Positions 5,816 to 62,486 are shown, numbered from the whole stretch's first letter. The stretch is 62,486 nt of DNA, filler included, from a bacterium (GCA_043817485.1; 8 parts of 8 records of this genome joined end to end with filler, not necessarily neighbours in it); one strand, 5' to 3'. A program made the numbers and translations. Notes: a model not told the origin generated them from the letters alone.

Positions 5816-6705
5816 TTATGCTCGTGGATGAGTTTTATCATAAACAGATTTTAAACGAGTTGTAGTAATATGTGTATAGATTTGTGTAGATGTTAAATTT
5901 GCATGACCTAATAATTCCTGAACAGCTCTTAAATCACAACCTGCATCTAATAAATGAGTAGCAAAACTATGACGAAAAGTATGTGGACTTACTTTTTTGT
6001 AAATACCTAATTGTTTTAAACATTTGTTTATTATATTTCTAATAGATCTAACTGTTAATCTTCCCCCATTTTTATTAAGAAATAATGCCTTTTCTTGCAT
6101 TTTTTTTTTTTAGCTAATTCATTTCTTTTTAAAAGATATTTTTTAATAGAATTAAGTGCTTTTTCTCCAATAGGAACAATTCTTTGTTTTTTTCCTTTTC
6201 CAAAAACCTTTATAAGTCCTCCAATAAAATCTATATTATCTAAATCAAGAAATACTAATTCAGAAACTCTGATACCAGTAGAATATAAAGTTTCTAAAAT
6301 AGCATTATTGCGAATTCCAAGAATTTTATCTTTTTCTATATGATCTAACAAGTTAAATATTTCATCTATATCTAAAAAATTTGGTAATTTTTTTTCTTGT
6401 TTTGGAGTAATTACATATTTAGCTGGATTTGTTTTGATATATCCTTCTCTTAATAAAAAATTAAAAAAACTTTTTAAAGTAGCTAATTTACGAGCAATAC
6501 TTGTTTTTTTATATTCTTTTTCTTTGAGATACGCCAAAAATTTTCTAATTAATTGATATGTAATAGAAAAAATATCTTCACAATTTTCTTTTTGAAAAAA
6601 TTCAATTGATTGTTTTAAATCATTTTTATAATTTATAATAGTATGTGAAGATGCATTCATTTCTACTTCTAAAAATTTAAAAAATTTACTAACATAAGTT
6701 TTCAT
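5816..6705 (-). pseudogene. xerC: Tyrosine recombinase XerC, frameshifted in a 12-A run at 6100-6111 (possibly a sequencing error)
   Basis: N-part has SIARKLATLKSFF, LYSTGIRVSEL, GKGKKQR; C-part has SPHTFRHSFATHLL, QELLGH, TQIYTH, HPRA. Confidence 0.85.
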
Positions 6706-9097: not shown

Positions 9098-9102
9098 ATT
9101 TT

Positions 9103-12100: not shown

Positions 12101-13669
12101 TTGAATATTTTTATTTTTATATTATTTATTTTTTTAAATAGTTTTATTTATGCTGATAATAATATTATTGAAAGTGAACAAGAAAAGCCAAATTTTGAAT
12201 TACCAGAAATAGTTATTTCTGGAGAATATACCCCAAAACCTTTTAATATAAATAAAAAAATCTTTACACAAGACATTAATAAAGAACTTCCAATTGAATT
12301 TTCTATAAAAGATTATGAAATAGAATCTTTAGAAATGGAAAAACAAATGCCTTTATTAAATGATCTTCTTTTTCGACATAATTTTTTTATAAATAAAACT
12401 TCTTATGGAAGTTTTAATACATTTTCTACTTATTCAATGTATGGACAAGAAAGAAAAACATACAATGGGATTATTGATTTAGATTTCGAAAAAAGTAGTG
12501 GATATATGACTCAAGATGAATGTAAAAATCTTTTTAAAAATAGAGGATTTGAAAAAATACAAACTGAAATAAGTTTTTTTTCTAAATCTAATGTAACATT
12601 TTGTTTAAATTTAATGGGATTTAGTAAAAAATTAAAAGAACCTTCTATCATAGACTCTAAAATTAAAAAAATTCAAGCAAAAATTAATGGCTTTGTTTAT
12701 TTTGGAAAAGAAAAAAACTTTTGTTTATCTTTTACTAATATCAAAAGTAATTTTGATAAGTTAAATTATTCTACAGAAAATACGAATTTTAATTTTGGAT
12801 TAAATTGTAATTTTACCCAAAAAGATATTTTATATAAAATAGAAACAAATTTTTTAATTGATTCTACTGAAAAAGAAAAAGAAATTTATAATAAAAATTT
12901 TTCAAATGCTTTTTTGAAAATTATTTTTCCTCCTATTGCAGAAAAAATGGGCTTAAATTTAGGGCTAAAATTTTTCATAACAAAAAAATCCATTTTGTTT
13001 CCTTATATAAGAATATCTTATGTTCTTTTTAAAAATACTCTTTTAGAATTAGAAAAAGATGGAATTGTAAATGTACCATTTTTTAATAATTTGTATTTTA
13101 AAAATGATTATGTTGAACCAAATTTTAGAATTAACTCAGAAAATAATAATTGGTTAAAATTTCAAATAAAACAAGAAATTAAAAATAATATAATTGCTAT
13201 TTCTGGATTACAACTTTCTCATATAAATAATTTTATAATTTGGGAAGACGTAAATAAAAACTTTTTATTTGAACCATATAATAAAGATTATATCATCAAA
13301 ACCCAACTTTATTTTAAATTAAAAATTATAATTAAAGAAAATTTAGATCAATCTTTAGAATATATTTATGAAAAAGCAAATTCAATCTTACCTTTTTCTC
13401 CTAAACATAAATTAGAAGCCAAATTAAATTATGATGGAAGTAAAATTAATTGGAACATAGAAAGTAAATATGTAGGAGAACAAAAAAATTCATCTACAAC
13501 TCTTCCATTTTACTTTGTGATAAATAATAAAATTCAAAAAAAGATATTTTCTAAATTATCAATATTTTTAAATGGTGAAAATTTATTAAATAATAAAAAC
13601 TTTATAGATGAATTTGGTTTTTCAAAAAAAGGAATTAATTTTAAAATAGGTGCAGAATATAAATTTTAA
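12101..13669 (+). CDS. Putative outer-membrane beta-barrel (TonB-dependent receptor-like) protein
   Basis: Signal peptide, ELPEIVISG box, GENLLN motif and terminal GAEYKF; follows the TPR gene. Confidence 0.6.
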   Translation: MNIFIFILFIFLNSFIYADNNIIESEQEKPNFELPEIVISGEYTPKPFNINKKIFTQDINKELPIEFSIKDYEIESLEMEKQMPLLNDLLFRHNFFINKTSYGSFNTFSTYSMYGQERKTYNGIIDLDFEKSSGYMTQDECKNLFKNRGFEKIQTEISFFSKSNVTFCLNLMGFSKKLKEPSIIDSKIKKIQAKINGFVYFGKEKNFCLSFTNIKSNFDKLNYSTENTNFNFGLNCNFTQKDILYKIETNFLIDSTEKEKEIYNKNFSNAFLKIIFPPIAEKMGLNLGLKFFITKKSILFPYIRISYVLFKNTLLELEKDGIVNVPFFNNLYFKNDYVEPNFRINSENNNWLKFQIKQEIKNNIIAISGLQLSHINNFIIWEDVNKNFLFEPYNKDYIIKTQLYFKLKIIIKENLDQSLEYIYEKANSILPFSPKHKLEAKLNYDGSKINWNIESKYVGEQKNSSTTLPFYFVINNKIQKKIFSKLSIFLNGENLLNNKNFIDEFGFSKKGINFKIGAEYKF

Positions 13670-13736
13670 TGAAAAAAAAATAAAAAATTATGTTTTTAAA
13701 TTATTATCTTATCGTTCTTATACAATTTTTGAATTA

Positions 13737-13836
13737 NNNNNNNNNNNNNNNNNNNNNNNNNNNNNNNNNNNNNNNNNNNNTTAATTAATTAANNNNNNNN
13801 NNNNNNNNNNNNNNNNNNNNNNNNNNNNNNNNNNNN
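13737..13836. other. Artificial contig linker N44-TTAATTAATTAA-N44 (also at 21482-21581, 45355-45454, 48726-48825, 53879-53978, 57429-57528, 60188-60287)
   Basis: Identical six-frame stop spacer flanked by N runs. Confidence 0.99.
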
Positions 13837-13976
13837 AAATTTCTATTTTAAAATTGTTAATTTTACTAAATATGAAAATATTAAATTTTGTTTATTTTTT
13901 AAAAAAATCTCCTGAAAAATTAAATAAATTTCCTGTTTTTTTTATCATATTCTTTCATATTATTTTTGACAATACC
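13837..13976 (-). mobile_element. Other end of the IS-like insertion in the DUF4160 gene, running into the contig edge
   Basis: Minus strand reads ...GATATTCCT|GGTATTGTCAAAAATA, the inverted partner of 127-138. Confidence 0.65.
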
Positions 13977-14120
13977 AGGAATATCCCCTTCAATCATATT
14001 CAAGGTTTCAATTTCAAAAACTCCGTTGTATTCTCCATAAATGGCATGAAAGTGGGGAATTCCATGTTCTTTAAAGTACATTTTAATAAGAATACCGTAA
14101 AATTTTGCTATTATCGGCAT
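13977..14120 (-). pseudogene. 5' half of the DUF4160-family gene
   Basis: MPIIAKFYGILIKMYFKEHGIPHFHAIYGEYNGVFEIETLNMIEGDIP with the EH.PPHFH-like motif; homology stops at GATATTCCT. Confidence 0.85.
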
Positions 14121-14458
14121 TTGATTTCTCCTTGTTTATCATCTAAAATTGTTGTCATTTACTAAAAAATATGTGATAAAAACCAGAATTCAAGTGCTTA
14201 AAAATTCAAAAAAAAATCATTTATTTTCATTGTCCTCTTGAATTCTTTTTTCTAACTTCTTAATTGAATTTTAGATTTTGGTTTTCTTCTCAATCTAAAA
14301 TCTGCAATTTAAAATATTTCTTTATAGAATTTCTTTTTTTTTGCTTTATTTATAAAATCATTTTCTAAAATTAATTTTTTATTTCCACTTTTCTATTTCT
14401 TCTCGTGTTTGTTTTTTATTGTTTCCCATTTTCTTTGTCAAGTTTTTATTTTTATTTG

Positions 14459-14578
14459 TGTGGTTACTAAATCAAAATGTTAATTCCATATAAAAGAAAG
14501 TTATTATAAATGAAATACTATGAAAAATATAAAAAAATATGAAGTATTCAAGGAGGCGATAGAGAATGATGAACATTG
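14459..14578 (+). mobile_element. ISNCY/IS1202-like left end with degenerate transposase N-terminus
   Basis: TGTGGTTACTAAATCAAAATGTTAA end, then MKNIKKYEVFKEAIEN (from 14520), resembling ISNCY transposase starts. Confidence 0.55.
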
Positions 14579-14622
14579 AAAAAAAGGCGGTATTTTTTGA
14601 TTAAAATTTTAACTGGAAAAAA

Positions 14623-14711
14623 TGGCGGAGAGAGTGGGATTCGAACCCACGTGAAGTTTCCCCCAACTCGCTCTCCAGGCGAGCCCGTTACAGCCACTTC
14701 GGTATCTCTCC
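14623..14711 (-). tRNA. tRNA-Ser(GGA)
   Basis: Anticodon arm CTCGC-CTGGAGA-GCGAG, long variable arm, GGTTCGAATCC, encoded CCA. Confidence 0.95.
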
Positions 14712-14740
14712 ATTTAAAATTATTTTTTTTGAAAATTAAC

Positions 14741-14831
14741 TGGCGGAGAGAGAGGGATTTGAACCCCCGTTTCCAATAAAGGAAATCACGATTTCGAGTC
14801 GTGCGCTTTCAGCCAGCTCAGCCATCTCTCC
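14741..14831 (-). tRNA. tRNA-Ser(CGA)
   Basis: Anticodon arm CACGA-CTCGAAA-TCGTG, long variable arm, encoded CCA. Confidence 0.95.
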
Positions 14832-14833
14832 AA

Positions 14834-15784
14834 TTATTTTTCTTTTATTAATCCTTTTAAATCCATAATTGTAGATTGATCGCTTACGATAACAGAAATT
14901 TTATCACTTAATTTTTCTACATAAAGATATTTAATATAATTTGGATTGTTTCTTAATGCTTCATTAATAATATTAATTGATTTTTTTTTTCCTTCTGCTT
15001 CAATTACTTTTCTTTCAGCTTCTTTTCTCTCTTTTTCTATTAAAAAATCCATTTTTTTAGCTTCTTGTTGAGCTACTTGTTTTTCTTCAATTGATTTAGC
15101 AAAATCAGCTGTAAACAAAACATCTCTTAAAATAACATCATCAACAATAAAGCCATTTTTTTCTAATTTAATTTTTATTCTTTTATTTATTTCATCTTGA
15201 ACATTGCTTCTTTTTTCTGAATAAATATCCATTACTTCATATTCAGAAATTACTAATCTTACAATTGATCTAATAGTTGGTCTAATAATTTTTTCTTCAA
15301 AATCAGGACCAATTTCATTATGAATTTTTGTTATTTTTTTCGGATTTAATCTATACCAACAAGTTAAATCAATTCCTATTTGTAAGCCCTCTTTAGTTGG
15401 AGACCATAAACTATCATCCCAATTTGTTTTTTTTCCTTCTCCTATTTTTCCACTCATTGTATATTCTTGCATTCTCACATCATACATTTTTGTAACTATT
15501 ACTCCTGGCATTACAAAATTTATTCCTTGTCCTACACTAAAAATATTTTTAGTAATATTATTAAATACCACTAATCTATGACCTACGGGAATAATTCTAA
15601 TGCTCGAAAGAAAAAAAATAATTATAAAAACAATTATTGCAATAAAAACTATTTTCATTTTAGATAAATTTGAAGAAATATCAATAACTTTTCCAAATTT
15701 GTCTGATTTTTTTAATAAACTTATTTTTTGAATATAATAAATTATTAAACTTACAACAACTAAAAATAATATAAATTTTTCCAT
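14834..15784 (-). CDS. SPFH/prohibitin (band 7) family protein
   Basis: N-terminal TMs, IIRPTIRS, DDVILRDV, FAKSIEEKQVAQQEA. Confidence 0.9.
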   Translation of the reverse strand: MEKFILFLVVVSLIIYYIQKISLLKKSDKFGKVIDISSNLSKMKIVFIAIIVFIIIFFLSSIRIIPVGHRLVVFNNITKNIFSVGQGINFVMPGVIVTKMYDVRMQEYTMSGKIGEGKKTNWDDSLWSPTKEGLQIGIDLTCWYRLNPKKITKIHNEIGPDFEEKIIRPTIRSIVRLVISEYEVMDIYSEKRSNVQDEINKRIKIKLEKNGFIVDDVILRDVLFTADFAKSIEEKQVAQQEAKKMDFLIEKERKEAERKVIEAEGKKKSINIINEALRNNPNYIKYLYVEKLSDKISVIVSDQSTIMDLKGLIKEK

Positions 15785-15786
15785 AC

Positions 15787-16248
15787 TTATTTCTCCTTTT
15801 TCCTTTGTTTCAGAAAAAATTGCTTTAATAATTTTTGAGAATCTTCTTTTAAAATACCTTTAATGATTTTCAAAGAAGCACTTTTAATATGATAATCTAC
15901 TTCATAAGTACCTTTTTTTTCATTATTTGTTCCATAAACAAGAATTGGAATACGAGATAAAAATAATGCTCCTAAACACATAAGACAGGGCTCAACAGTT
16001 GTATAAAGAATAGTATTATTTAATCGCCAATTTTTTAAATAAGATGCAGCACTTGTAATAGCAATCATTTCTGCGTGGGCTGTTGAATCTTGCAAATTTT
16101 CTACTTGATTATATCCTCTTCCAATTATTTTATTTTCTTGAACTACTACAGCACCTATTGGAACTTCATTTTTTTCATAAGCTTTATAAGCTTCTTTTAA
16201 AGCTTCATACATAAATTTTTCATATTCATACACAAAATTATACCTCAT
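15787..16248 (-). CDS. tadA: tRNA adenosine(34) deaminase
   Basis: EVPIGAVVV, TAHAE, EPCLMC. Confidence 0.92.
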   Translation of the reverse strand: MRYNFVYEYEKFMYEALKEAYKAYEKNEVPIGAVVVQENKIIGRGYNQVENLQDSTAHAEMIAITSAASYLKNWRLNNTILYTTVEPCLMCLGALFLSRIPILVYGTNNEKKGTYEVDYHIKSASLKIIKGILKEDSQKLLKQFFLKQRKKEK

Positions 16249-16257
16249 TTTAATAAA

Positions 16258-16349
16258 TGGCGGAGAGACTGGGATTTGAACCCAGGGAGAGAAATTAATC
16301 CCTCAACTGCTTAGCAGGCAGCTGCCTTAAGCCACTCGGCCATCTCTCC
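16258..16349 (-). tRNA. tRNA-Ser(GCT)
   Basis: Anticodon arm GCTGC-CTGCTAA-GCAGT, long variable arm, encoded CCA. Confidence 0.95.
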
Positions 16350-16418
16350 ATTTAAAATCAATTTTTAATTGAAATTTTTATTTCTTGCTTATCCATATCT
16401 ATAAAAATTGAAAAAAAC

Positions 16419-16504
16419 TGGCGGAGAGCGAGGGACTTGAACCCCCAAGCCCTTTAGGGGCGCCTGATTTCAAGTCAGGTTCCTTACCATTAGGATAGCT
16501 CTCC
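16419..16504 (-). tRNA. tRNA-Ser(TGA)
   Basis: Anticodon arm CCTGA-CTTGAAA-TCAGG, long variable arm, discriminator G, encoded CCA. Confidence 0.95.
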
Positions 16505-16529
16505 CTTATGTCCTATAATAAAGAAAAAA

Positions 16530-16733
16530 CGAATATCGAAATTCGAAACAAATTCGAATGACAGAAATACATTGTAAATGGAAGTCAGAATAAAAAAAAC
16601 TACCTAAATACATAAAAAAAAATCGAAATCCAAATGATCAAAATTCTAAATTCAAAACAACATAATAAAAACATTTGATATTTGTATTTTAATTTTGGTA
16701 GTTTGCAATATTTTATTTTAATTGCAACTTGGA
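16530..16733. repeat. Degenerate heptamer-repeat element (CGAAAT-like units), ending in a MITE-like terminus
   Basis: CGAATATCGAAATTCGAAACAAATTCGAATGACA shared with 53395-53428 (1 mismatch); ends TTGCAACTTGGA. Confidence 0.6.
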
Positions 16734-16741
16734 ATCAACAC

Positions 16742-16817
16742 TGGTGGGCGATACTGGATTTGAACCAATGACTTCCACCTTGTGAAGATGGCACTCTAAC
16801 CACTGAGTTAATCGCCC
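16742..16817 (-). tRNA. tRNA-Val(CAC)
   Basis: GGGCGATTAACTCAG..., anticodon arm CCATC-TTCACAA-GGTGG, encoded CCA. Confidence 0.93.
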
Positions 16818-16828
16818 AATAAAAAAAT

Positions 16829-16904
16829 TGGTGGGCCCACCTGGATTCGAACCAGGGACCGACCGGTTATGAGCCGGTGGCTCTGCCAACTGAGCTATAG
16901 GCCC
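16829..16904 (-). tRNA. tRNA with CAT anticodon, most likely tRNA-Ile2 (lysidine)
   Basis: GGGCCTATAGCTCAG..., ACCGG-CTCATAA-CCGGT; G1-C72 pair excludes initiator; located right after rpoD. Confidence 0.9.
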
Positions 16905-29609: not shown

Positions 29610-32600
29610 TTATAAATATTTTCTCAACACCTCTTCTTTTTCAGAATTAATATTTATCAAAATATTTTTCATTTTTTCAATTTCTTTTTCGTTTTTCTCA
29701 ATAATTGCAACAAGTTTTTTCTGCTCGGCGATTTGAGGTAACGGGATTTCATAATTTGAATATTGTTGAGCATTAATATTAGGTTGTGCAACGCCTGCCA
29801 TATTTAATTTAATCCATTCTTTATAAATATCGCTTTTAGTAACAATATCCAAATATTTGGGTAAACAAACTGTTCTATCAGGTCTGAACCTAATAAGATA
29901 ACCTGCATAAATAGCTTTCTCAACCTGACCTGTAAAGAAAAATGTTTTTCCCACCGTATTGCCAGATCTTGCAAAAAGAAAATCACCAATTTCTAAAATG
30001 AATTTTTCTTCAATATTTTCAGCCGTCATAAATTCATTTAACAAATTTCCATCATCGTCAATATCGGTTATTCTAATATAACGATAATCAGTATCTGGGT
30101 TCCCTTTAATTGCTTTTTCAGCAGCCCCATATTGAGGTTCTAAACAAAATGACCCAAGTTTTTTCTTTAAATATTTTGAATATAAGCTATCAGATATTGA
30201 AACAATATCTCGTTTCAATTCATTTATTCTTGAATTGCAATCCGTTTCCCTCTTTTCAATTGATTCAATTTCTTTTACAATAGTTTCTTGAATGTCGATA
30301 GGTGGAAGTGGAATTTTAAAGTTACTAATTTCTGTTTTTGAAATTTCATCGTATGTAGCACCAGAAGATAACGACTGAATATTTTTTGTGCATTTCTTTA
30401 GTATATAATACAGATATTCAAAATGAATTTTCTTTGGATCGCAAATGAAATTTTTATAGCCTTGATTTGTAGCTGTTTCAACTTTTGAAATTGTTACTTC
30501 TCCAATTGTTGCTCTACTTGAAAATATGACTGTATTAACTGGCAGTAATTTAGCACTGCTACTTTTCAAGCCTTGTTCTGTTATTTTTCGTTGAGTTGAA
30601 TACAAATACTTTTCCTTGGTATCAACCAATGTTGCCCAGTAAATATTACCATCCCAATTCTTTTTATCGTTTGTATCTGGTGTGCCACCACTTTGAATAT
30701 CGGCAATATCACCGAGTTTGACTAAATTCCATTTACTTTCAATTTTAATTTTTTTTGAAGAATTTGTGTTTATTATCTTTTCGAAACTAATTCTTTCAAA
30801 ATCAATCAAATCAACTATATTAAAAACTGAAACATATTTTTCCTGTTCGGGCGAAATATTTTCAATTTCAACATTTTGAATTGCTTTTCGAATGTAACTG
30901 TTAGCTTTTTCAGGATTCTGATAATTAGTATCATCAAACATCTTACCGCCAACTAAGTTTATTTTTATGCCTTCGTATCCCTTTCTACCAATAAACTCGT
31001 AACCCAAATATTCCTTTTGTTCATCAATTTCTTTTCCAGTTTTTACGATTACTGTTTTTTGAAATTTATAATAATCTTCTATTGTCTCTATATTTTTATT
31101 TCCATCTCCTAAACAAAGCATAAAATACAGGAATTTTTCTTTTTCAATGTCTTTGCAATATTCGTAAAATCGCTTATTTATCTCTTTTTCTTTTTCCTCT
31201 TTTAAAAAATTTTTAAAGTAATTTTTTGTTTGTAATTGTTTTATTTCAGTGCTATTATCAAATGCATTACGATATTCTTTAAACATTTCCGTTTTTGATA
31301 ATCTATCGTTTATTTCTAATTTCAGAAATTGTTTATAATCATCCAAAACAAAACCACGATGCTCAACAAACATTTTTAAAAATTTTTTATCATCAATATA
31401 TCTAAAATTTATTTCATATTTAATATTATTAAACAAATCATCAACAATATATTTACGGTCTTTTAAAAAGTCATCATCTCTGCGTTTTAGAAATAATATA
31501 ACCGTTGTAGTTCCTGTGGCAATAAATGTTTTACTTCCTAATTCGGTAATTGCTTTTATTTCGAAATACTTTAATAAAATTTCTCTTGCTTTTGAATAAA
31601 GCCCTGTGTTGCTTAATATCGATGAAGGTAAAATAATTCCTGCTAAACCTCCATCGGCTAAAACTTGTTTGGTTCGTTCGATAAATAATACTTCAATTTC
31701 TTTGCTTCTTTCGGTTAACGATTCGAATAAATCAAAATGAGTTCTTCCAACATTCAAATAATTTCTGAATGCTTCAACAGAATATGGCGGATTTGCTATA
31801 ACAACATCAAATTTTTTATTTTCTAATTTCAATCTGTCGTGTTCTTCCAAACCATCACCAAAAAGTATATTTGCTTCACCATCACCATTAATGTAACAAG
31901 CAATTTGCGATGTTCTGGCAAGGCGATAATCCTTTTCTATTCCAAAAATAAAATTTTCTGCCCATTCAGTACCTGCTCGGTATTTCTTAACTTTTCTTTT
32001 TAATTCCAAAGATAATTCTGATGTATCAATGGTTTTTAAAATTTGTTGAAGTTCTTCAATACTTTCAGTTAAAAAATGTCCAGCACCACAGGCATAATCA
32101 AGTATTTTAGGTAAAAATTCAATATCATCCTCTTTGATTTTTTTACTGATAATATTTTCAAAACCAAGCGATAAAATAATGTATCTTACAATTGGAATAG
32201 GTGTGAAGAATTGTCCTTCGGATTGCTTAACCCCATGATTAAGCATTAATTCAAAAAAGTCGCCTAAAATCTGCTGTTTACTTGTAAAACGGAATTTATA
32301 ATTTTGAATGAGTTTCATCACTTCAACTAATACACGAGCATTTTGAATAAATAATTTTTTATTGTGAACTTCTTTAAATGCAAATTCATTGTTGGTATAA
32401 TATTTTAATTCCATAAAAATATCTTTAACTTTTTCAATCGGAATTTGCTTTGGATATAACTTAATAATTTTATGTATATCTTCTTCTGAGTAATAAATAA
32501 TTTCTTCATTCAGTTTTTTCATTCCTATTTGATATAGTGCTTGTAAACGGTCAATGATGTGTTCGTATTCTTCATCTTCTTTTACCTGAAAATGCAAAAC

Positions 32601-33495
32601 ATCTTCATCGTTTTTTTCTTCATCTACTATTTTACAAAGAAATAATGAAAGCACCCGATTAAATGCGTTAGCATTATCTGAGATATTATTATGTCTTAAA
32701 ATCTCTGCAAATTTGTTAAACAAACCTTTTGCATCATCAAGGTTTTTAAGATTCTTCTTTTTCAAAGATTTTAATTCAAGCGAATAAGCATTTGCGTCAG
32801 TATCAAAATTTCCATTGAAATGGAAATATTTATTAAACGATTCTTTCCAAACCTCAAATAACTCTTGTTTATTATTAGCCCATTTATACAGTTTAATATT
32901 TTCTTGTTTTAATTGCTCTGGTTTTTTGTCTATGTCTTCTTTTCTATCCTTTATTTGTACAATTAGATTGTTATAATTAAATTCATCATTTTCAAATTTC
33001 GAAGTATATAAAACAAGAAACTGGGTGTTTTTATCTTGATTAAGATAACTAAAAAGCTGTCCTCCGTGTTCCTCCATTTTAATTTTTTCTTTCTCAAATT
33101 CCTCACCCCATGTTTTGCATTCAATTATCAGAAGTGTTTTACCATCTTTGCCATAAACATTAATATCAGATTTTCCTCCACTTGCACCATGCCCGACTTT
33201 CCATTTTTTTTTCAAGATGCAAATCGTTTGGGGCATAACCCTTTTCAAGTAATCTGTCCACACATTCAAGAACTACAAGGCTTTCAGGTGCTGAAAAATT
33301 AGATGTAGTATAGTCACCTAATTGTATTTGCCCATCTTTCTGTCTTTCTACAGTTGTTTTTTCATCACTACGATAAGATATTTTTCCCTTTTCTAAATCA
33401 ATTTTTATGGTGTAATTATGGAGTTTGTATTCCTTAGTGTAAACGGAAAGATTACCTGTAAATCCCAATTTTTCTATAAAAGTTTGTATATTCAT
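29610..33495 (-). CDS. Fused restriction-modification enzyme (HsdR_N-like nuclease + N6-adenine MTase + two HsdS-type TRDs; type IIG/type I-like), frameshifted in an A9 run at 33204-33212
   Basis: KSDINV...IIECK nuclease motif, GQFFTP, DYACGAGHF, NPPY, SGGTP/SSRATIG/IPLPP TRDs. The upstream 109-aa ORF joins at HLEKK|WKVG. Confidence 0.88.
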
Positions 33496-45693: not shown

Positions 45694-46794
45694 TTAAGGA
45701 TAAGTAAATTTTTTCCCTTCATAATTTGTCATTTCTACTGTTCCATCTTCTTTTATTGTTGTATATTTTGGAAGAAGAGGTATTTTTCCTCCTCCACCTG
45801 GTGAATCTATTACAAAATGTGGAACAGCCATTCCGCTTGTATGTCCTCTAAGTCCTTTGATTATATTTAATCCATTTTCTACTGGACCTCTAAAATGTGA
45901 AGTTCCTTTTACCATATCTGGTTGATAAATATAATATGGTTTTACACCAATAGAAAGTAATTTTTGATTTAATTTTTTAAATATTTCAGGATTATCATTT
46001 ACTCCTTTTAAAACAATACTTTGATTTCCTAATTGTATTCCTGAATCAATTAATTTTTCACAAGCAATTTTTGATTGTTCTGTTACTTCATTTGGATGTT
46101 CAAAATGTGTATTAATGTAAAGTATTGGTTGTTTATTATATTTTTTTAGCATTTGACATAATTCATTAGTTATTCTTTCTGGCATTACACATGGAACTCT
46201 TGTTCCAATTCGAATCATTTCTAAATGAGGAATTTGACTTAATTCAAATAGAATTTTTTCTAATGTTTTATCTCCTAATAAAAGAGGATCTCCTCCTGAA
46301 ATTATAACATCTCTGATTTCTGTATGTTCTTTAATATATTTCATTGCTTTTCTTATATCTTCTATCGAGGGATTTTTTCTTACTTCTCCAACTTTTCTTT
46401 TTCTTGTACAAAATCTACAATACATTGCACAAGTATTTGAAACAAGAAGTAAACATCTGTCTGGATATCTATGAGTTATAAAAGGAGTGTTTCCTTCTTC
46501 TTTTAAAGGGTCTTCTTCTCCTTCTGTTTCTTCAATTTCTTGTATTTTTGGAATGCATTGATTCCAAATAGGATCTTTTTTTTCTTTAATTAAAGAAAGA
46601 TAATGTAAATTAATTCTCATTGGATATTTTTTTGTTACTTCTTCTATATTTTTTATTTCTTTTTCTGTTAAAAAAATACTTTTTTTTTCAAGAGCAATTT
46701 TTAAAAGATTTACATCAGAAATAGCTTTTGGAAGATGCAAATAATTAGAAACAGAAGGATGTACATCCTTGTTAGTGTTTTGGATATCTTTCAT
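45694..46794 (-). CDS. KamA-family radical SAM (lysine 2,3-aminomutase-like)
   Basis: HRYPDR, CAMYCRFCTRKR, SGGDPL, RIGTR, NQS..LKGVND, PGGGGK. Confidence 0.92.
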   Translation of the reverse strand: MKDIQNTNKDVHPSVSNYLHLPKAISDVNLLKIALEKKSIFLTEKEIKNIEEVTKKYPMRINLHYLSLIKEKKDPIWNQCIPKIQEIEETEGEEDPLKEEGNTPFITHRYPDRCLLLVSNTCAMYCRFCTRKRKVGEVRKNPSIEDIRKAMKYIKEHTEIRDVIISGGDPLLLGDKTLEKILFELSQIPHLEMIRIGTRVPCVMPERITNELCQMLKKYNKQPILYINTHFEHPNEVTEQSKIACEKLIDSGIQLGNQSIVLKGVNDNPEIFKKLNQKLLSIGVKPYYIYQPDMVKGTSHFRGPVENGLNIIKGLRGHTSGMAVPHFVIDSPGGGGKIPLLPKYTTIKEDGTVEMTNYEGKKFTYP

Positions 46795-46897
46795 TGTTGT
46801 TTTTATTTTTTATAATACTTTAGTATTTAAACATTTCCTTAGAAAATTATTTAATAGAATTTTTAGAATTAAAGAAATATTATTGAAAGAATTGTAA

Positions 46898-47482
46898 TTA
46901 TTCTATTTCATTAATTTTAGATATTCCCAATACTTTTGTTCCAAGCTCTTTAAATTTGTCAGTTATTTTTTCATCAGGTTTTCCTGTTAAATAGTATTTT
47001 GGTTTTCCATATTTTTTAATTAATTCATTTAATAATTCCTCTTTTGAAGGTTCTTTTTTAATTTTACTTGCAATTATTTTATTATAAATTCCTTCTAAAT
47101 TTGAAACTTTTAGAATTTCATTAATGTAATTTTGCGAATTTGTTGTAATTAAAATTAATTGATATTTTTCTTTTAAAGATTTTAATTTTTCTGCAATTTC
47201 TTTTTTTATCTTTTTAGGATTATTTTTTATGTATTGCATTACATCTTCTTGGTACCATTTTCTTGCTTGTCTTGTTTGTTGTTCTTTTGAAGCATTTGGC
47301 ATTATTTTTTTCATAGCTTCAATAACTCCTGGAAAATAATTTTCTTTTCCAATCCATTTTTCTAAAGAATTATCTCTTGTTTTTTCTATTGCTCTTTTAA
47401 ACCATGCTTTATGTGGTTCTATAAACACTTCATGTTCTAAAAGTAATCCATCAATATTTGTTGCTAATATTGGTTTTTCCAT
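46898..47482 (-). CDS. HAD-like family protein (degenerate motif I)
   Basis: ILATNIDGLL, LILITTN, KKEPSK. Confidence 0.6.
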   Translation of the reverse strand: MEKPILATNIDGLLLEHEVFIEPHKAWFKRAIEKTRDNSLEKWIGKENYFPGVIEAMKKIMPNASKEQQTRQARKWYQEDVMQYIKNNPKKIKKEIAEKLKSLKEKYQLILITTNSQNYINEILKVSNLEGIYNKIIASKIKKEPSKEELLNELIKKYGKPKYYLTGKPDEKITDKFKELGTKVLGISKINEIE

Positions 47483-47515
47483 AACTTTAATATACTAATT
47501 CATTATTTAAAAATT

Positions 47516-48079
47516 ATGGTAGATTCTTTTAATCAACGAAAAACAGCAGTTCTTTCAAAATTAGATAAGTCTTCAATTGGAAAATGGGATAAAAAAATTG
47601 TAAAACTTTGTGATAAATTAAATAAATCTAAAAATTATTATACAACTTCTTCGTGTTCTGGAAGAATTGTTTTAATGTTGGATCAAGATAAAAAAGAAAA
47701 TGGTTTATTTTTGGTTATGTCTCATGATTTAATTTCTTTTGAATGGTTAGAAAAAAATTTAGATTTTTTATCTAAAGAAAAAAAACTTATAAAATTTAAA
47801 TGTGAACCTCCAATTCTTCATGTTGTTTGTAAAGATTTGAAAATAGCTTCGGAACTATTAGAAAAAGCAAGAAAAATTGGTTGGAGAAGATCTGGAATTT
47901 ATTCTTTTGGAAAAAATATTGTTGTGGAATTAAATTCTACTGATAAATTAGAATTTCCAATAATAAACAATGGAAAATCTTTAGTTGATAAAAATTTTTT
48001 AAAAATAATTGTTAAAATATCTAATGAAAAATTGAAACGTGGTTGGGAAAAAATTGAGAATTTAAAGAAAAGTTTATAA
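47516..48079 (+). CDS. taw3: tRNA wybutosine-synthesis methyltransferase TYW3/Taw3 (archaeal type)
   Basis: DKSSIGKWD, YYTTSSCSGRI, EPPILHV, GWRRSGI. Confidence 0.9.
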   Translation: MVDSFNQRKTAVLSKLDKSSIGKWDKKIVKLCDKLNKSKNYYTTSSCSGRIVLMLDQDKKENGLFLVMSHDLISFEWLEKNLDFLSKEKKLIKFKCEPPILHVVCKDLKIASELLEKARKIGWRRSGIYSFGKNIVVELNSTDKLEFPIINNGKSLVDKNFLKIIVKISNEKLKRGWEKIENLKKSL

Positions 48080-57428: not shown

Positions 57429-58431
57429 NNNNNNNNNNNNNNNNNNNNNNNNNNNNNNNNNNNNNNNNNNNNTTAATTAATTAANNNNNNNNNNNNNNNN
57501 NNNNNNNNNNNNNNNNNNNNNNNNNNNNGTTTCCTATACTAGTGTGAGATTAGTCTATATATGCTTATTTGTTAATCAAAATATCTTATTAATCTTAGAT
57601 ATCTTATTATAGAAACTTTTATTGACAAAATGCTCAAAAAATGAACAAAGCTAAAAAGGGCTAGAAAGAAGAAATGTAAGGTTTTTAGTCAATATCTATC
57701 ATAATTTTCTTAATTTAAATATTATAGAAACTAAGGAAGCTGGTTTTTCTCAATTTTAATAATTTTTTGTTGTAGAAAATTTTAGATAATATTTAAAATA
57801 ATGAGCTAAAAAATACATAAAATACCTTAGATGTAATAAAAGAAAATAAAATAAACTAAAGGCAAGGGGGGAGGAGAGGGGGTATAAAATGGAAAATGGA
57901 TAAAATATTTGATTAATTTATTTAAAATGTGTTGAAATTGAATAAAATAAAAACAAATAAAATAAAATAATTTGAACATGTGTATTAGGTTTAGGAGAAT
58001 TTATCACTTTTTTTGGATTTTGTGGGGGTAATAAAAACAAAGATGAATGTGATTTTGCTCGAAATGGGGTTAGTTGTCTTTTTATGCTGTTAATAAGTCA
58101 GAATTTTGGTTAATAGAAACAATAAGTTAGAGAAAGTTTGTTCAATTTTTGCACGTGTTTTTCTATTTTTGTCTTTTTTCACCTATATAATATATTATTA
58201 CTTAAGTAATAATATAATATACAGGAGACAAAAAAAGCCAGAAAATAAAAAACGCTACGGTCGCCGCAAAATCGGGGATTTTGCTGGCGACAACTGATTT
58301 TTCAAAGAGTTAGCATGGTTAAGTTAAATTATATTTCTTATTTATTATAGTTTATAAGTTTAATTATCTTAGGTATTTTAGAAAATAATTGACTAGGAAA
58401 AATTAATCTCTCGCTGATTAATCCCAAACAA

Positions 58432-58832
58432 GCTAAGTAATTGATTTTTATAGACTACCTAATTTATCCTATTTCCTAAATTAATAAAATCAACTATTTA
58501 GCAAGCAAAAAACAGGCTTTCTAGTTAAATTTTTCTAAACCTGATTTTCTACTCAATTAAGTTCTCTAAATTAATAAAATCAATTACTTAACTAGCAAAA
58601 AACAGGCTTTCTAGTTAAATTTTCCTCAAATTTGGTTTTTCTAGTTTAATAAAATCAATTACTTAACTAGTTTAAATTTTTCCTATTAAATTTTTTCCTA
58701 GTCAAGTTTAATAAAATCAACTATTTAACTAATTTAAATATTCCTAACTTAATAAAATCAACTATTTAACTAATTTAAATTTTTTTCTATTAAATTTTTC
58801 TAGCTGAATTCAATAAAATCAACTAGTTAATT
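58432..58832. repeat. Cluster of 22-bp iteron-like repeats TTAATAAAATCAAYTAYTTAAC
   Basis: Direct copies at 58481, 58571, 58646, 58708, 58749, 58810; inverted copy at 58432-58450. Confidence 0.85.
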
Positions 58833-58888
58833 AGTTAAAATATTCTAAACCATTGATTCTAAAGGCTAAAATTTGTTATATAGTATGC

Positions 58889-58917
58889 TTGACAGTAGAA
58901 TCTGACTCATGTATACT
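58889..58917 (+). promoter_or_regulatory. Near-consensus sigma70 promoter
   Basis: TTGACA-17 nt-TATACT. Confidence 0.6.
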
Positions 58918-59543
58918 TGCAAATAAGAGTTAAGGCATTGTTTTTTATTAATAAAATCCCCAAATTCTGATTTTCCTCGTTTCGGCGGCGGGAGTTTTTG
59001 ACATCCTAGCCCATTTCAAAATAGCTTCAAAAACCCCTCTAGGATCTCCAAAATCGAGATCAAATTGTCTTTGGCATAGTTTCATACCTCCCCTTCATTT
59101 TCGTTGTCAAATTTTGCAAATTTGATAGGGTTTTTGTTAAATCTTTGAAAATAAAATGAATTTGACTAATGTTGTTGAAAAATAAGACTTTGAGCTGAAT
59201 TTAGATATTTTAATAGTTTTAGATTTTATAGTTAATCCCTCTTTTTTCTCTCTTTTTTCTTTATTTTGTCTGGGTTTTGGATATTTTTCTCTTTTTGTTT
59301 TTCCAGTCAAAATATCCTCTAAGATATTGTTTTTATTAATTAAATTTAGAAAGATAAATAATATTTTTTGTTAAGTAATTGAAAACAAAGAGAATGTGTC
59401 TAATCCTATTGAAAAATAAGGTTTTTAATGCTTTTTTTAAAAAAAGTTTTAAAAATTGCTTTAGAAGTTTTAATAATTTTAGAAATTATAGAAATTGAAA
59501 AAAAAAGAAAATTTATGCAGTCAAAACTAAGGTGTTTTTTGTA

Positions 59544-59699
59544 TGAAAAGTTTTGCATAGTTTATTTTATTTTATTTATTTGGTGTCATTTTAGGTCATT
59601 TTTTGTCATTTATTTTTTTATATGTGAAAAGTTTTGCATAATTTATTTTATTTTATTTCTTTTTTTGTGTCATTTTAGGTCATTTTTTGTCATTTATTT
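59544..59699. repeat. Imperfect tandem duplication, period 81 bp
   Basis: TGAAAAGTTTTGCATA...GTGTCATTTTAGGTCATTTTTTGTCATTTATTT occurs twice. Confidence 0.85.
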
Positions 59700-60355
59700 C
59701 CCTTATTATTTTATTTTATTATATTATATTTTTTTTTGGGGAGTGTAAAGTTTTTTGACGAAATTTGAGATATTTTATTTTATTTGATTTAATTTTATTG
59801 GATTTTATTTGATTTTCCTGTTTAAATTTTGCACAAATGTTAATAAAATATTGTTCATTTTTTGATCAACTTAAAAATGACTGATTTTAAAGTGTGAATA
59901 TTGTTTACAGAAAAAATGAAAATATTTTTAGGGATTTTTTGGAGTATTTTTTGAGATAATAAAAACAATGGGATAGAAATTTGTTGAACTTCTTTTTTTG
60001 AAAATTATAAAAAATTCTCCGAGATTTAGCAAAAAGTTTTTCCAGAATTTTCTAAAAAATTCTCTAGGGTTTTAATTTTTTTATAAAAAGGGGAAATAAA
60101 TGACAAAGAATAACTTGATAAATCTTTTTAAAATTTTGTTAAGTATTTGATTTTATTATAAAAATTTGTTAGACTTATTTTCTTAAANNNNNNNNNNNNN
60201 NNNNNNNNNNNNNNNNNNNNNNNNNNNNNNNTTAATTAATTAANNNNNNNNNNNNNNNNNNNNNNNNNNNNNNNNNNNNNNNNNNNNTGGATTGAAGAAA
60301 TGATAATATTGGGAAAGATATAATAGAAGTTTATATAGGAGATTTATTATAAAAA

Positions 60356-61369
60356 ATGACTAAACAAGAAATTCGTAAAAACAATTTATATCTTAATACG
60401 CCTGAATTAGAACATTTAAATATATGTCAAAATATAGAATTTTATCCTAAATTAGGAAAAACTAATAAATATGATCCTGTTATATATGGAGAAAATTTAT
60501 TTCCACTTCCAAAATTAATTATGTTGGAAACAACTTCTTGGTGTAATTTAAGTTGTAGATTTTGCCCATCAAAAGATTTAAAAAGAGAAAAAGAAATTAT
60601 GCCAATGGAACTTTTTATAAAAATTGTTGATGAACTAGATAGAATAAAATGGTTTGGTGAGTTACAATTATTTAATTCTAATGAACCTCTTTTGGATCCA
60701 TTATTAATTCAACGAATAAAATATATTAAAAAATTGCCTTTTTTAAAAAAATCTTTTATTGGCGTAATGACGAATATGAAAAAATTAACAAAAAAGATTT
60801 TAAATGAATTATATCTTTCTGGGCTTGATCAATTGGTTTGCGATAATTATTTTCCAGATAACATATCTTGTAAATATATAAAAATGTTTAAAGATTTTGA
60901 AAATAATTTTGTTGAAAGAAAAATAACTTTTATTGATAACTATAAATTTTATAATAAATTAAAAATTAATAGAAAAGATTTTAATATAATGTTTTTTCAA
61001 AAATTTGGTAAAAATACTTCAAAAGTATTTGGTAAGAATTTTACATCGCGCTTACAATTAATTACAACTGGTAAAAAGTTAGAAAATTTTAAAAAAAGAA
61101 TGTGTATTCGTCCGTTTAGACATATAACAATTACATATAATGGTAAAATACTTTCTTGTTGTGACGAATGGCTATATGATCCCAGAAGTATAATGGGCGA
61201 TCTTAATAAAAACACACTAATTGAAATATGGAATGGAAAACCTTTTTTTGTTTTAAGATATAGATTGCTACAATATGATCGATCTTTTTATCCTTGTAAT
61301 AAATGTGATAATCATGGTGAACCATTTTGGTTTAATTGTAGATCAGTTTCCAAAGAAGGATTATTTTAA
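60356..61369 (+). CDS. Radical SAM protein with SPASM/Twitch domain
   Basis: ETTSWCNLSCRFCP, NEPLLDP, CIRPF..ITI..NG....CC...GDL...L.EIWNG...CNKC. Confidence 0.9.
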   Translation: MTKQEIRKNNLYLNTPELEHLNICQNIEFYPKLGKTNKYDPVIYGENLFPLPKLIMLETTSWCNLSCRFCPSKDLKREKEIMPMELFIKIVDELDRIKWFGELQLFNSNEPLLDPLLIQRIKYIKKLPFLKKSFIGVMTNMKKLTKKILNELYLSGLDQLVCDNYFPDNISCKYIKMFKDFENNFVERKITFIDNYKFYNKLKINRKDFNIMFFQKFGKNTSKVFGKNFTSRLQLITTGKKLENFKKRMCIRPFRHITITYNGKILSCCDEWLYDPRSIMGDLNKNTLIEIWNGKPFFVLRYRLLQYDRSFYPCNKCDNHGEPFWFNCRSVSKEGLF

Positions 61370-61397
61370 TATAACAAAAGAAGTAAAGGTATAATTA

Positions 61398-62486
61398 ATG
61401 ACTAGAAAAGAATTGCTAAATAATGTTTCAGATAAAATTATTAATTGTAATAAGTGTTATAGATTAAGAGAAATTACTAAATACCCAATGCCACATATTT
61501 ATTATAATAATTTATCAAAAGTAAATATATTTATTGTTGGTCAAAATCCAGGAACAGAAAATAATTATTCAAAAGTAAAAATAGAAAATTTTATAAAAAA
61601 ATATCATGATTTATGGTGGGAATGTAGAGTTGGTAAATATATTAGAAAAGAATTTGGAGATGATTTTTTAAAAGAAAAAATATTTTTTACAAATATTTGC
61701 AAATGTTCTTCTCCCAAAAATTCAAAATTAGAAAAAGAAGAAGTAGAAAATTGCAAACAGTTTTTATTAGACCAGCTTAAAATTATAAGGCCAAAAATCA
61801 TCATTACGCTTGGAAATGAAGCAGAAGAAACAATAAATTCTTTGGATTTATTTGATAAAGTTAATATAATAAATTTATTTCATCCATCATATTTTAGATA
61901 TAATAATGACCCTGATTTAATAAAGATTCAATCAAATAAAATAAAAAAAATAAAAGAACAATTTATAAATGACGATGAAAAAGAAACAAATTTATATTTT
62001 GATGATGCAGAAAGATTTTTTAAAAAAGGAGCAAATTATTTTTCTTTTCATAGTGGATCAAATCTTTCTACTGCATTTAGGTACAATTTTGCATGTTATG
62101 CTGTTTCTAAACAATTAAAAAATATTGGATCCGTAAAAGAATATATAAAAGTTTTAGATCTTGGATGTGGTATTTGTAATTTTATTTCTTTTTGGGGCAA
62201 TCGTTTTTGTGCGCAATTTAAACCAAGACTCCATTATATAGGTTTAGAATATGATAAAAAACGTGTAGAATATGTAGCCAATAATTTTCCTTCTTGGTTT
62301 GAAAAAGAAAGAAGAACAAGAGTAGAAATGCACCAATTTGATTTAATAAATAAAAGCCTTTTTGATTTAAATGAAAATAAATTTGACAGTATTATTGCAA
62401 TGGAAGTACTTGAACATATTGGTAAAGAAGCTGCAGAGAGAGTTATTTGTGAAATTAATAAATTATTAAATAAAAATGGGATATTA
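61398..62486 (+). CDS. Fe-S uracil-DNA glycosylase-family domain fused to class I SAM-dependent methyltransferase (3' partial; absent from the ORF track)
   Basis: Open for 363 codons to the window end. CNKC, IVGQNPG, TNICKC, NCK.FL..QL....PK.IITLG, HPSY; then VLDLGCG, YIGLE, FDSIIAMEVLEHI, LLNKNGIL. Confidence 0.85.
   Translation, partial: MTRKELLNNVSDKIINCNKCYRLREITKYPMPHIYYNNLSKVNIFIVGQNPGTENNYSKVKIENFIKKYHDLWWECRVGKYIRKEFGDDFLKEKIFFTNICKCSSPKNSKLEKEEVENCKQFLLDQLKIIRPKIIITLGNEAEETINSLDLFDKVNIINLFHPSYFRYNNDPDLIKIQSNKIKKIKEQFINDDEKETNLYFDDAERFFKKGANYFSFHSGSNLSTAFRYNFACYAVSKQLKNIGSVKEYIKVLDLGCGICNFISFWGNRFCAQFKPRLHYIGLEYDKKRVEYVANNFPSWFEKERRTRVEMHQFDLINKSLFDLNENKFDSIIAMEVLEHIGKEAAERVICEINKLLNKNGIL

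Follow-up and report, generated by a model that had tools for sequence, protein, structure and literature searches.

Hypermodification of phage DNA determines how restriction, CRISPR and glycosylase defences turn out, and it is a source of enzymes for DNA technology. Glycosylation of 5-hydroxymethylcytosine (5hmC) in phages is textbook knowledge, the diversity of the gene clusters involved is an active field, and glycosylated cytosine is known in the form of 5hmC bearing glucose and of 5-hydroxycytosine bearing arabinose or hexoses. Here, we analyse the last piece of a 62,486-nucleotide stretch of DNA (the window) from a binned bacterial genome (GCA_043817485.1). This piece carries a radical S-adenosylmethionine (rSAM) gene followed by a gene in which a uracil-DNA glycosylase (UDG) domain is fused to a class I methyltransferase (MTase).

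The T-even phages glucosylate 5hmC using gp42, a dNMP kinase and α/β-glucosyltransferases. A longer version of our locus, the 8.8-kb contig L019 obtained from a metagenome-contig scan with the rSAM family, also encodes a ThyA-like protein with the T4 signature, a dUTPase and a glycosyltransferase (GT) candidate. Small open reading frames (ORFs) weakly resembling dTMP kinase occur in sister loci, and homologues of the T4 α- or β-GTs lie beside the same rSAM and MTase families in loci L020, L038, L040, L041 and L043. Relative to the T-even system, the cluster adds nucleotide-sugar remodelling genes, a BtrN-like rSAM enzyme, a class I MTase, a UDG and a DUF1599 protein. The L019 GT candidate is a different GT-B protein, lacking a Pfam or PDB sequence match and an hhalign match to the α-GT homologue.

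The arabinosyl-5-hydroxycytosine clusters of RB69 and DLP3 and the hexosylated cytosines of RL38J1 (Lee et al., NAR 2026, PMC13326640) provide a second parallel, in that a MilA-resembling ThyA homologue, a nucleotide kinase, several GTs and phage-encoded synthesis of the sugar donor are reported in one cluster. Those ThyA homologues carry D169N and give a 5-hydroxy-dCMP product, whereas 12 of 12 ThyA-like proteins in our comparison keep Asp. A term search of the main text of PMC13326640 returned no radical SAM, methyltransferase, uracil or UDG. In phages with glycosylated, hypermodified thymidine, active UDGs, either polymerase-fused or in trans, are reported to remove deoxyuridine (dU) ahead of the fork and to spare the modified base (Missoury et al., NAR 2026, PMC13697223). 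The SP15-like PolA-UDG proteins in that report resemble our fusion in the association of a UDG with glycosylated hypermodified pyrimidines and in being prone to fuse with replication or metabolism neighbours. However, the partner here is a SAM methyltransferase and not a polymerase, the predicted modification is of cytosine and not of thymine, and motif A is non-canonical.

Brig1 and Brig3 are also UDG-superfamily folds that deal directly with (glucosyl-)5hmC DNA, but they are described as bacterial defence enzymes that destroy phage DNA, with a catalytic Asp (D127 in Brig3, PMC13160076). The fusion, by comparison, is apparently phage-encoded, Fe-S family-4-like and placed within a modification operon. 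Finally, M6 gp53 is a radical SAM isomerase of thymidine hypermodification, encoded in a phage DNA hypermodification cluster. It is like spore photoproduct lyase (SPL) and is reported to rearrange an amino-acid adduct on DNA (PMC8989533), whereas the rSAM enzyme of the window is BtrN/SPASM-like and GT-linked.

The UDG-methyltransferase fusion gene

The window is composed of no fewer than three contigs joined into a pseudomolecule (1-57429, 57529-60188 and 60288-62486). Two identical spacers, each consisting of an N-run, TTAATTAATTAA and a second N-run (57430-57528 and 60189-60287), place stops in all six frames between the concatenated contigs, and the second of these sets the 5' end of the contig with the rSAM and fusion genes. 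That contig is 2199 bp long, the length of the longest contig on record for the proteins identical to both of its products. As the preliminary description of this DNA had stated, a frame opens at ATG 61398 and continues on the plus strand, free of stops, for 363 residues to 62486. Its open 3' end is due to the end of the contig, not merely to the edge of the window. A radical SAM/SPASM gene (60356-61369, plus strand) does lie 28 bp upstream on the same strand, and the intergenic spacer (61370-61397, plus strand) contains an AAGG Shine-Dalgarno-like motif approximately 8 nt 5' of the ATG.

Both domain assignments of the preliminary description hold. The N-terminal part is a UDG (Pfam PF03167, 6e-18, residues 39-171), and the remainder a class I MTase (Pfam Methyltransf_12/11/31/25, 2e-11 to 1e-08, residues 250-363, above cut-off). 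The UDG domain comprises residues 1-186 (61398-61955, plus strand), with stand-alone relatives stopping at query residue ~186-190. It is followed by an 11-residue linker, EQFINDDEKET (residues 187-197, 61956-61988, plus strand), which holds an A-rich stretch and is the same in L019. The MTase domain (residues 198-363 of 463, 61989-62486, plus strand) is cut by the contig end, and the complete domain ends at L019 4769, giving a fusion of 463 amino acids. The motifs fall at C17, C20, C103 and C119, at G48-Q-N-P-G52 (61539-61553), at H162-P-S-Y165 (61881-61892) and at V252-LDLGCG258 (62151-62171). In the structure prediction each domain is confident, while a helix around residues 190-220 has predicted local confidence (pLDDT) of 55-66; the mutual position of the domains is not usable because the predicted template-modelling score (pTM) is 0.60.

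The A-runs at 61943-61950 and 61978-61982 had been named as places where insertions or deletions might separate the two domains. The window piece is 99.9% identical to L019, with three substitutions, all in the rSAM gene, and no indels over 2199 columns, so the two assemblies agree at both runs. We also aligned contigs from four runs (X1-X4), labelled as groundwater metagenome and from four studies, onto L019; stretches of L019 that X2-X4 do not cover were not counted as absence. No inserted or deleted letter was found in these contigs, the junction bin was covered in all four runs (depths of 84, 19, 6.7 and 7.2), and a single X1 contig of 1536 bp (L019 3579-5114) runs across both junction and stop codon with 0 differences. 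The run evidence is not fully independent, because one of the two assemblies may derive from the X1 sample. Since two compensating frameshifts would be needed to split the ORF, we take the fusion as encoded, and we hold with high confidence, from these alignments, that it is a genuine feature of the DNA. That it arose in assembly or sequencing from a genome with two genes, as in L027 and L030, is very improbable: the close relatives are all separate genes and the A-rich junction has an out-of-frame TAA-ATG at 61966-61971, but the artefact requires both frameshifts, the frame is common to two assemblies that differ by 3 SNPs, and the four runs give no indel rows at a junction that all of them cover.

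The UDG domain scores 65.7 bits against PF03167 (cut-off 24.3), and a profile of its subfamily matches family-4 structures over their full length (4zbx at 3.7e-29, also 1l9g, 1vk2 and 1ui0, down to 2.6e-22). An alignment of 22 members defines the motifs (G/A)(R/Q)NPG, FFTN(I/V)CKCSSPxNS and HPSY. C17 and C20 are invariant, C103 and C119 are conserved in at least 90% of members, and all four align with the canonical family-4 cysteines and are predicted to bind a [4Fe-4S] cluster. Motif B has its catalytic His (H162-P163-S-Y165, with H162 invariant), and N99 is conserved. The Glu of the family-4 motif A, GE(A/G)PG, is absent: the sequence is GQNPG in the window and (G/A)(R/Q)NPG in the subfamily, as opposed to GEAPG in the canonical aligned relatives. 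Asn50 of this motif is placed as in the GxNPG motif of MUG, SMUG and TDG. The subfamily also has an insertion of ~12 residues after motif A relative to canonical family 4, and its scores against the NCBIfam family-4 models fall below the cut-offs (TIGR00758, 56.5 against 125.3 bits; NF040953, 69.4 against 250 bits). It is thus a divergent branch and no plain member of family 4, because the Glu is replaced, the insertion is present and the cut-offs are not reached. The sequence is best read as a divergent UDG of the Fe-S family 4, conserved as part of the module described below. TIGR03915 and TIGR03916 represent a UDG-like and radical SAM gene pair for putative DNA modification or repair; neither is among the NCBIfam matches at E<=0.01 for the rSAM protein or the fusion.

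The subfamily appears to be specific to phages. A scan of 185,579 species genomes with it gave only 4 distant relatives (22-27% identity). In the cultured-phage collection the fusion was matched through its UDG part alone, at no more than 28% identity, save for two 78-residue matches at 31%. This UDG subfamily of phages, which combines a hybrid active-site motif with tight linkage to modification genes, is newly defined here.

The MTase half has motif I (VLDLGCG) and the acidic YIGLE motif. Its family alignment (A8) conserves LDxGC, EH, SSPNPKK..G, H..E..E and LAECY, and in the stand-alone relative P0042 residues 4-166 align to query residues 197-362. A fold search with the whole fusion model was filled by matches to the MTase half, the best being class I MTases at Z 17-19. 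In fold and sequence it is most like small-molecule and RNA-side-chain MTases (CmoM, Z 19.3; BelI, METTL6, RebM and phosphoethanolamine N-MTase). No DNA-base MTase model (N6_N4_Mtase, N6_Mtase or DNA_methylase, with DPPY or PCQ as catalytic motifs) matched the fusion at E<=0.1 or 0.01, whereas these models do match other L019 and L020 genes in the same scan.

Next, we looked at how rare the fusion is. Searching 1.84 billion representatives exhaustively with HMMER yielded 1797 matches at E<=0.001, and among the best 150 of these the only collinear UDG-MTase fusion was the query's own record. The UDG relatives listed are stand-alone proteins of ~170-215 residues ending at query residue 186-190, and the MTase relatives listed are stand-alone and start near query residue 197. 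Six longer UDG-containing matches among those listed were scanned with Pfam. P0147 (357 residues, on 7 contigs of up to 23 kb) has a class I MTase followed by a UDG with the motif VAQNPC, the reverse order; its MTase half is not alignable with that of the fusion, and no locus for it was found in the viral collection. P0142 (349 residues) has a P-loop kinase-like domain followed by a UDG, and in P0131 a UDG forms the C-terminal part of a PolIII alpha. A cluster look-up of 10 relatives returned no informative names. The open-access literature, among the matches listed, contained no UDG-methyltransferase fusion by title. The statement that this is not a described architecture therefore stands, and the fused protein is new, as is the phage NPG-motif UDG subfamily inside the module.

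The radical SAM enzyme and the proposed modification operon

The upstream gene encodes a BtrN-like twitch/SPASM rSAM enzyme of 337 residues, identified by Pfam, PDB sequence, profile and Foldseek searches. Both Pfam domains score over their cut-offs (Radical_SAM 5.4e-09, SPASM 1.8e-11). BtrN, of butirosin biosynthesis (PDB 4m7t), is the sole PDB match of the single sequence (6.3e-09), the best match of the family profile (1.9e-36; next best 3.8e-10) and the best Foldseek match of the model (3.8e-16, TMt 0.79; next best 1.4e-08), with the sugar-acting rSAM enzymes SpeY, BlsE and DesII lower. The CX3CX2C motif (C63-NLS-C67-RF-C70) and the C-terminal Cys block both align with BtrN; residues 247-319, a shortened SPASM/twitch domain, align to BtrN 186-257. 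Auxiliary-cluster cysteines are at 250, 268(269), 314 and 317, of which C250, C268, C314 and C317 are invariant in 12 sequences. The model has a mean pLDDT of 69, with core blocks at 86-97 and values below 50 at residues 1-48 and 220-237. Relative to BtrN, the protein is only 17-19% identical, has ~50 extra N-terminal residues and an insertion, both poorly modelled, and occurs in the context of phage DNA glycosylation and not of aminoglycoside synthesis. From this homology we infer an enzyme of the sugar/cyclitol alcohol dehydrogenase type, which would oxidise a secondary alcohol.

A GT lies within two genes of the rSAM gene in 6 of the 6 loci examined (L019, L020, L033, L045, L001 and L003). 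In L020 a 40% identical relative is directly 5' of a T4 alpha-glucosyltransferase homologue (phrog_2888, 5e-96), together with a C5 DNA methylase. In L001, L003 and L045 relatives of 23-27% identity with the same Cys spacing are directly 3' of a TET-associated glycosyltransferase (TAGT). The cultured-phage collection gave 7 records matching the rSAM protein at no more than 27% identity, including Campylobacter phages annotated as 'BtrN protein'.

The MTase family shows a similar association. Of 11 loci on viral contigs checked by tblastn, 5 were annotated with Pfam, and all five have a T4 beta-GT-like gene or a TAGT within 2 kb of the MTase. The MTase is directly 3' of the T4 beta-glucosyltransferase-like gene in L038 and L040, is separated from it by one small ORF in L041, lies ~1.9 kb from it in L043, and is immediately 5' of the TAGT and rSAM genes in L045. 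The BtrN-like rSAM and this MTase family are new as recurrent partners of DNA glycosyltransferases; a search of the open-access literature for radical SAM enzymes with a glycosyltransferase in phage DNA hypermodification, or with TAGT, found nothing.

The L019 contig places the two genes in a one-strand, tightly packed operon. The order is an acidic protein (5' open), an NDP-sugar dehydrogenase-like protein, a short-chain dehydrogenase/reductase (SDR), the rSAM enzyme and the fusion, followed by a DUF1599-like protein, a 409-residue protein, a ThyA-like protein, an N6/N4 DNA methylase and a dUTPase. The dehydrogenase-like protein (278 residues) lacks the C-terminal UDP-binding domain. The SDR is of the epimerase/dehydratase kind, but all its NCBIfam matches are far under cut-off and no epimerase, dehydratase or decarboxylase subfamily is reached. 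The DUF1599-like protein (~100 residues) was assigned with an Atlas score of 0.96 (220/256 features), and a BLASTP comparison of orf104 with the DUF1599 protein of L038 gave only E 0.047.

The best PDB matches of the L019 ThyA-like protein are the CMP hydroxymethylase MilA (9e-37) and T4 dCMP hydroxymethylase (2e-13). Diagnostic changes reported for ThyA homologues are N177D for a cytosine substrate, L143D/E for a non-methyl product and D169N for 5-hydroxy-dCMP synthases (PMC13326640). Aligned to T4 gp42, the L019 protein shows the catalytic Cys, retains D169 and carries Asp in place of both L143 and N177 of E. coli. In all 12 ThyA-like proteins compared, D169 is retained and the residue corresponding to L143 is acidic (Asp or Glu). 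The dCMP type, with Asp at N177, is found in 9 of the 12, including every UDG-subfamily locus, while L001, L003 and L045 have Asn, the dUMP type. The L019 protein is thus a predicted T4-type dCMP hydroxymethylase, and the predicted base is 5hmC because of the residues at L143, D169 and N177.

The 409-residue protein belongs to no Pfam or NCBIfam family, its profile has no PDB sequence match, its comparison with the L020 alpha-GT homologue by hhalign gave a probability of 0.2, and it has no match in the cultured-phage collection. In the Atlas it is grouped with viral clusters and GT4/GT1 glycosyltransferases (TM 0.76-0.86), and this look-up provides a lead to a GT-B glycosyltransferase candidate.

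We then compared the loci of the UDG subfamily. The viral collection gave no relative with the fusion as a single query, but profile queries found 11 UDG-subfamily loci, 7 with identities of 40-46%, and the contigs that carry them measure 57-250 kb. Eight loci (L019, L026-L031 and L033), annotated by tblastn and Pfam, form the basis of the counts. L032 gave the same tblastn matches as L031 and was not annotated separately, and L002, L004-L018, L022-L025, L034-L037, L039, L042, L044 and L046-L072 are outside the counts. A ThyA-like gene and a GT-B/GT4 candidate lie within ~4 kb in 7 of the 8 loci, L026 being the exception, and an SDR is upstream in 6 of the 8. L027-L030 share a block of NDP-sugar dehydrogenase, SDR, UDG, a variable slot, a homologue of the 409-residue protein and a ThyA-like protein, with identities to L019 of 54-63% for the SDR and 52-58% for the 409-residue protein.

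The neighbouring polymerases vary among PolIII alpha, PolA and PolB. A dCMP deaminase follows the ThyA-like gene in L027, L028 and L030, and is followed by PolIII alpha in L027 and by PolA in L028. In L029 the ThyA-like gene precedes an unassigned 196-residue ORF and a second SDR, with a UDG-PolIII fusion further downstream, and L031 has the same genes rearranged and adjoining PolB. The L029 polymerase (13323-15626) is of the PHP/PolIII-alpha type, carries an intein and has its UDG domain at the N-terminus, and the same phage has a stand-alone NPG-type UDG. The variable slot in L027 and L030 holds a separate MTase overlapping the UDG stop (8001-8564 / 8554-9231 and 7992-8543 / 8540-9259, respectively), which shares the invariant core of the fusion MTase family at 19-21% identity. 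In several loci it holds a small ORF that is weakly dTMP-kinase-like. In L033, a 26% relative, a SPASM rSAM gene directly follows the UDG and precedes GT4-like and ThyA-like genes. The UDG occurs without the MTase in L028, L029 and L031, and L038, L040, L041 and L043 had no UDG match in the stretch examined.

Comparison of the L019 operon with this synteny on viral contigs upholds the proposed assignment of these genes to a phage cluster for DNA hypermodification. The preliminary description had also raised the case that homologues are always separate genes in glycan-biosynthesis contexts. UDG and MTase are indeed separate in every locus seen and nucleotide-sugar genes are present, but the context is one of DNA glycosylation and not of cell-surface glycan. 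The cluster was seen in groundwater-metagenome runs and on large viral contigs, where the same module, with UDG and MTase separate, is found on 76-250 kb.

Further gene arrangements were noted in the loci of the rSAM and MTase families. The TAGT-rSAM pairs lie at L001 7276-9033, L003 9172-10957 and L045 8622-10479, where the ThyA-like enzymes have the dUMP (Asn) signature. L003 encodes a 5-hmdU DNA kinase, and a T4 endoV-like Pyr_excise gene is present in L001 as well as in L003. The logic of sugar tailoring seems to extend to phages with 5-hydroxymethyluracil. A viral module in L038 (6880-11697), L040 (6887-11261) and L041 (6318-11601) combines the T4 beta-glucosyltransferase-like gene and the MTase family with a ~570-610-residue CofD-like protein and a MobA/CofC-like nucleotidyltransferase. 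The presence of a CofC/CofD-type pair hints that a phospho-linked group is added to the base after its glycosylation, and we found no description of such DNA decoration.

Possible roles of the UDG domain

Our favoured reading, to which we give moderate confidence, is that the piece is a fragment of an uncultured phage that was co-binned with the bacterium and that it belongs to a 5hmC glycosylation cluster, in which the rSAM enzyme and the MTase tailor the sugar and the UDG serves in quality control. The ThyA-like enzyme, which bears the T4 dCMP-hydroxymethylase signature, would make 5hm-dCMP, and the GT-B protein, for which the fold is the lead, would put a sugar on this base in DNA. The NDP-sugar dehydrogenase and the SDR would remodel the sugar donor. 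The rSAM enzyme, by its homology to BtrN, would oxidise a secondary alcohol of the sugar, and the MTase, given its recurrent place beside DNA glycosyltransferases, may methylate the sugar or a side group, at the stage of the donor or once the sugar is attached to DNA. The UDG domain would strip from phage DNA the dU (or deaminated bases) that the modification pathway cannot handle. Adjacent UDG and MTase genes with overlapping stop and start would have merged in this lineage into one 463-residue protein.

The cluster thus predicts an extra layer of modification, in which the DNA-bound sugar is tailored by a BtrN-like rSAM enzyme and a dedicated MTase family. This differs from the chemistry first suggested, in which the UDG domain primes a base for the rSAM and MTase. 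We found no evidence for such chemistry and assign the base chemistry to the ThyA-like protein and the GT candidate. A base-modifying rSAM enzyme is not what the comparisons indicate, since it is of the BtrN-like sugar/cyclitol dehydrogenase type and recurs beside DNA glycosyltransferases. The MTase likewise resembles small-molecule and not DNA-base MTases, and shares this gene neighbourhood, which speaks against a role on the base. For the UDG domain, the predicted function of a dU-removing quality-control enzyme fused to its neighbour is the most likely one, because active UDGs are reported to remove dU in phages with hypermodified pyrimidines (PMC13697223).

Several points weigh against this reading. 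Plain uracil specificity is not assured, because motif A is changed, the insertion is present and the scores are below cut-off. The canonical second UDG on the L029 polymerase argues that the NPG subfamily does something else. L026 has the UDG without the module. The synteny could be due in part to the shared ancestry of related phages. The fusions in P0147 and P0142 hint at a physical tie of UDGs to modification enzymes that is not due to chance. The fold neighbours of the MTase (CmoM, BelI, CysG(N-16), METTL6, RebM and others) cannot name its substrate, because they are tied within ~2 Z.

On another view, the UDG is no repair enzyme but binds DNA and flips bases, perhaps while tethered to the replisome. 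It would offer glycosyl-5hmC, or newly made DNA, to the MTase with which it is fused, so that methylation of the sugar takes place on DNA, and stand-alone UDGs would act likewise for the tailoring enzymes next to them. We regard this as a tentative alternative. The UDG lies within the block of sugar, GT and hydroxymethylase genes and not by repair genes, the Glu of the catalytic motif in family 4 is missing and the part of the pocket that follows motif A is remodelled, L029 has its other UDG on the polymerase, and related UDGs have fused independently to an MTase (P0147) and a P-loop kinase (P0142). There are precedents in Brig1 and Brig3, UDG-superfamily proteins reported to flip alpha-glucosyl-5hmC and 5hmC (PMC13160076), and in reported contacts of UDGs with viral polymerases (PMC13697223). 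However, the subfamily retains the residues expected of an active glycosylase (Asn99, His162 and, by the parallel with MUG, SMUG and TDG, Asn50), UDG and MTase each occur alone in the loci listed above, and the model has no defined domain interface, given its pTM and the pLDDT of the linker. The more specific form, in which the UDG fold has been recruited as a scanning, base-flipping and perhaps replisome-docking arm that finds glycosyl-5hmC in duplex or nascent DNA and passes its sugar to the MTase, while stand-alone members serve the kinase, rSAM enzyme or GT, is somewhat more doubtful still. If true, it would be the first UDG-fold reader or presenter in DNA modification, and no DNA base would have been known before to bear a sugar that is methylated or oxidised by an rSAM enzyme. 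The fused UDG-MTase is a simple construct with which to distinguish quality control from targeting as the role of a glycosylase fold in hypermodification.

It is decidedly unlikely that the UDG-like domain is an offensive glycosylase directed at host DNA or at rival phages with different modifications, from which the phage's own tailored sugar would protect it. Brig1, Brig2 and Brig3 are reported to excise modified pyrimidines and stop phage replication (PMC13160076), and both the altered motif A and the linkage to a cluster making a protective modification would suit such a weapon. Yet among 34 PDB matches of the UDG profile there is no Brig-named entry, in a comparison that included no direct Brig sequence, and no nuclease or AP-lyase partner is conserved beside the UDG. 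The invariant Asn99 presumably fits a pocket of the uracil/thymine type and not of the cytosine type, judging from work on family 1.

That the genes are cellular, forming a surface-glycan or natural-product cluster of the binned bacterium beside an unrelated repair UDG, is most improbable: binning did group the piece with a bacterial contig that is similar in G+C (0.229 vs 0.257) and SDR, NDP-sugar dehydrogenase, rSAM and MTase genes are all usual in glycan clusters, but L019 adds the dCMP-hydroxymethylase homologue, dUTPase, DNA MTase and DUF1599-like gene, the best relatives (SDR 54-63%, 409-residue protein 52-58%, UDG 40-46%) are on 57-250-kb viral contigs by phage-type replication genes, the species genomes yielded distant UDG relatives only, and no DNA link to the other window pieces was found.

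Other pieces of the window

The first 57.4 kb is ordinary bacterial chromosome of ~26% G+C, with sigma-70, DnaK/GrpE, PheS, GuaA, six tRNAs and type IX secretion system (T9SS) sorting domains. The sigma-70, DnaK, GrpE and PheS genes are not demonstrably linked to the fusion locus, because the spacers separate the contigs. Only binning ties the rSAM-fusion piece to the bacterial piece, and a DNA similarity search linked the pieces of the window neither to each other nor to the fetched loci.

The middle piece (57529-60188, 2.66 kb, G+C 0.229) has no convincing ORF. It contains families of 40-77-nt direct repeats around a TTAATAAAATCAA(C/T)TA(T/C)TTAAC core (58476-58850), with a second set at 59535-59800. 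The repeats resemble iterons and may represent a phage or plasmid origin or regulatory region.

TYW3 is part of the wybutosine pathway in eukaryotes and archaea, and to our knowledge a bacterial copy is unusual. The bacterial piece has a TYW3 methyltransferase homologue (PF02676, 4e-47; 47516-48079) that adjoins a HAD hydrolase and a KamA/lysine-2,3-aminomutase-like radical SAM protein (45694-48079). On the minus strand, 29610-33269 encodes a single chain of 1219 residues with N6_Mtase/Eco57I methylase domains and two Type I specificity (Methylase_S) domains, an architecture that suggests a fused restriction-modification or BREX-like methylase. Genes at 703-1095 and 6055-6705, for a protein with a Bro-N domain and a short tyrosine recombinase of 216 residues, may be remnants of mobile elements, unconnected with the fusion locus. 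Finally, a six-tRNA cluster on the minus strand (14623-16904) contains four tRNA-Ser genes (anticodons GGA, CGA, GCT and TGA) and is interleaved with TadA-like deaminase and SPFH genes.

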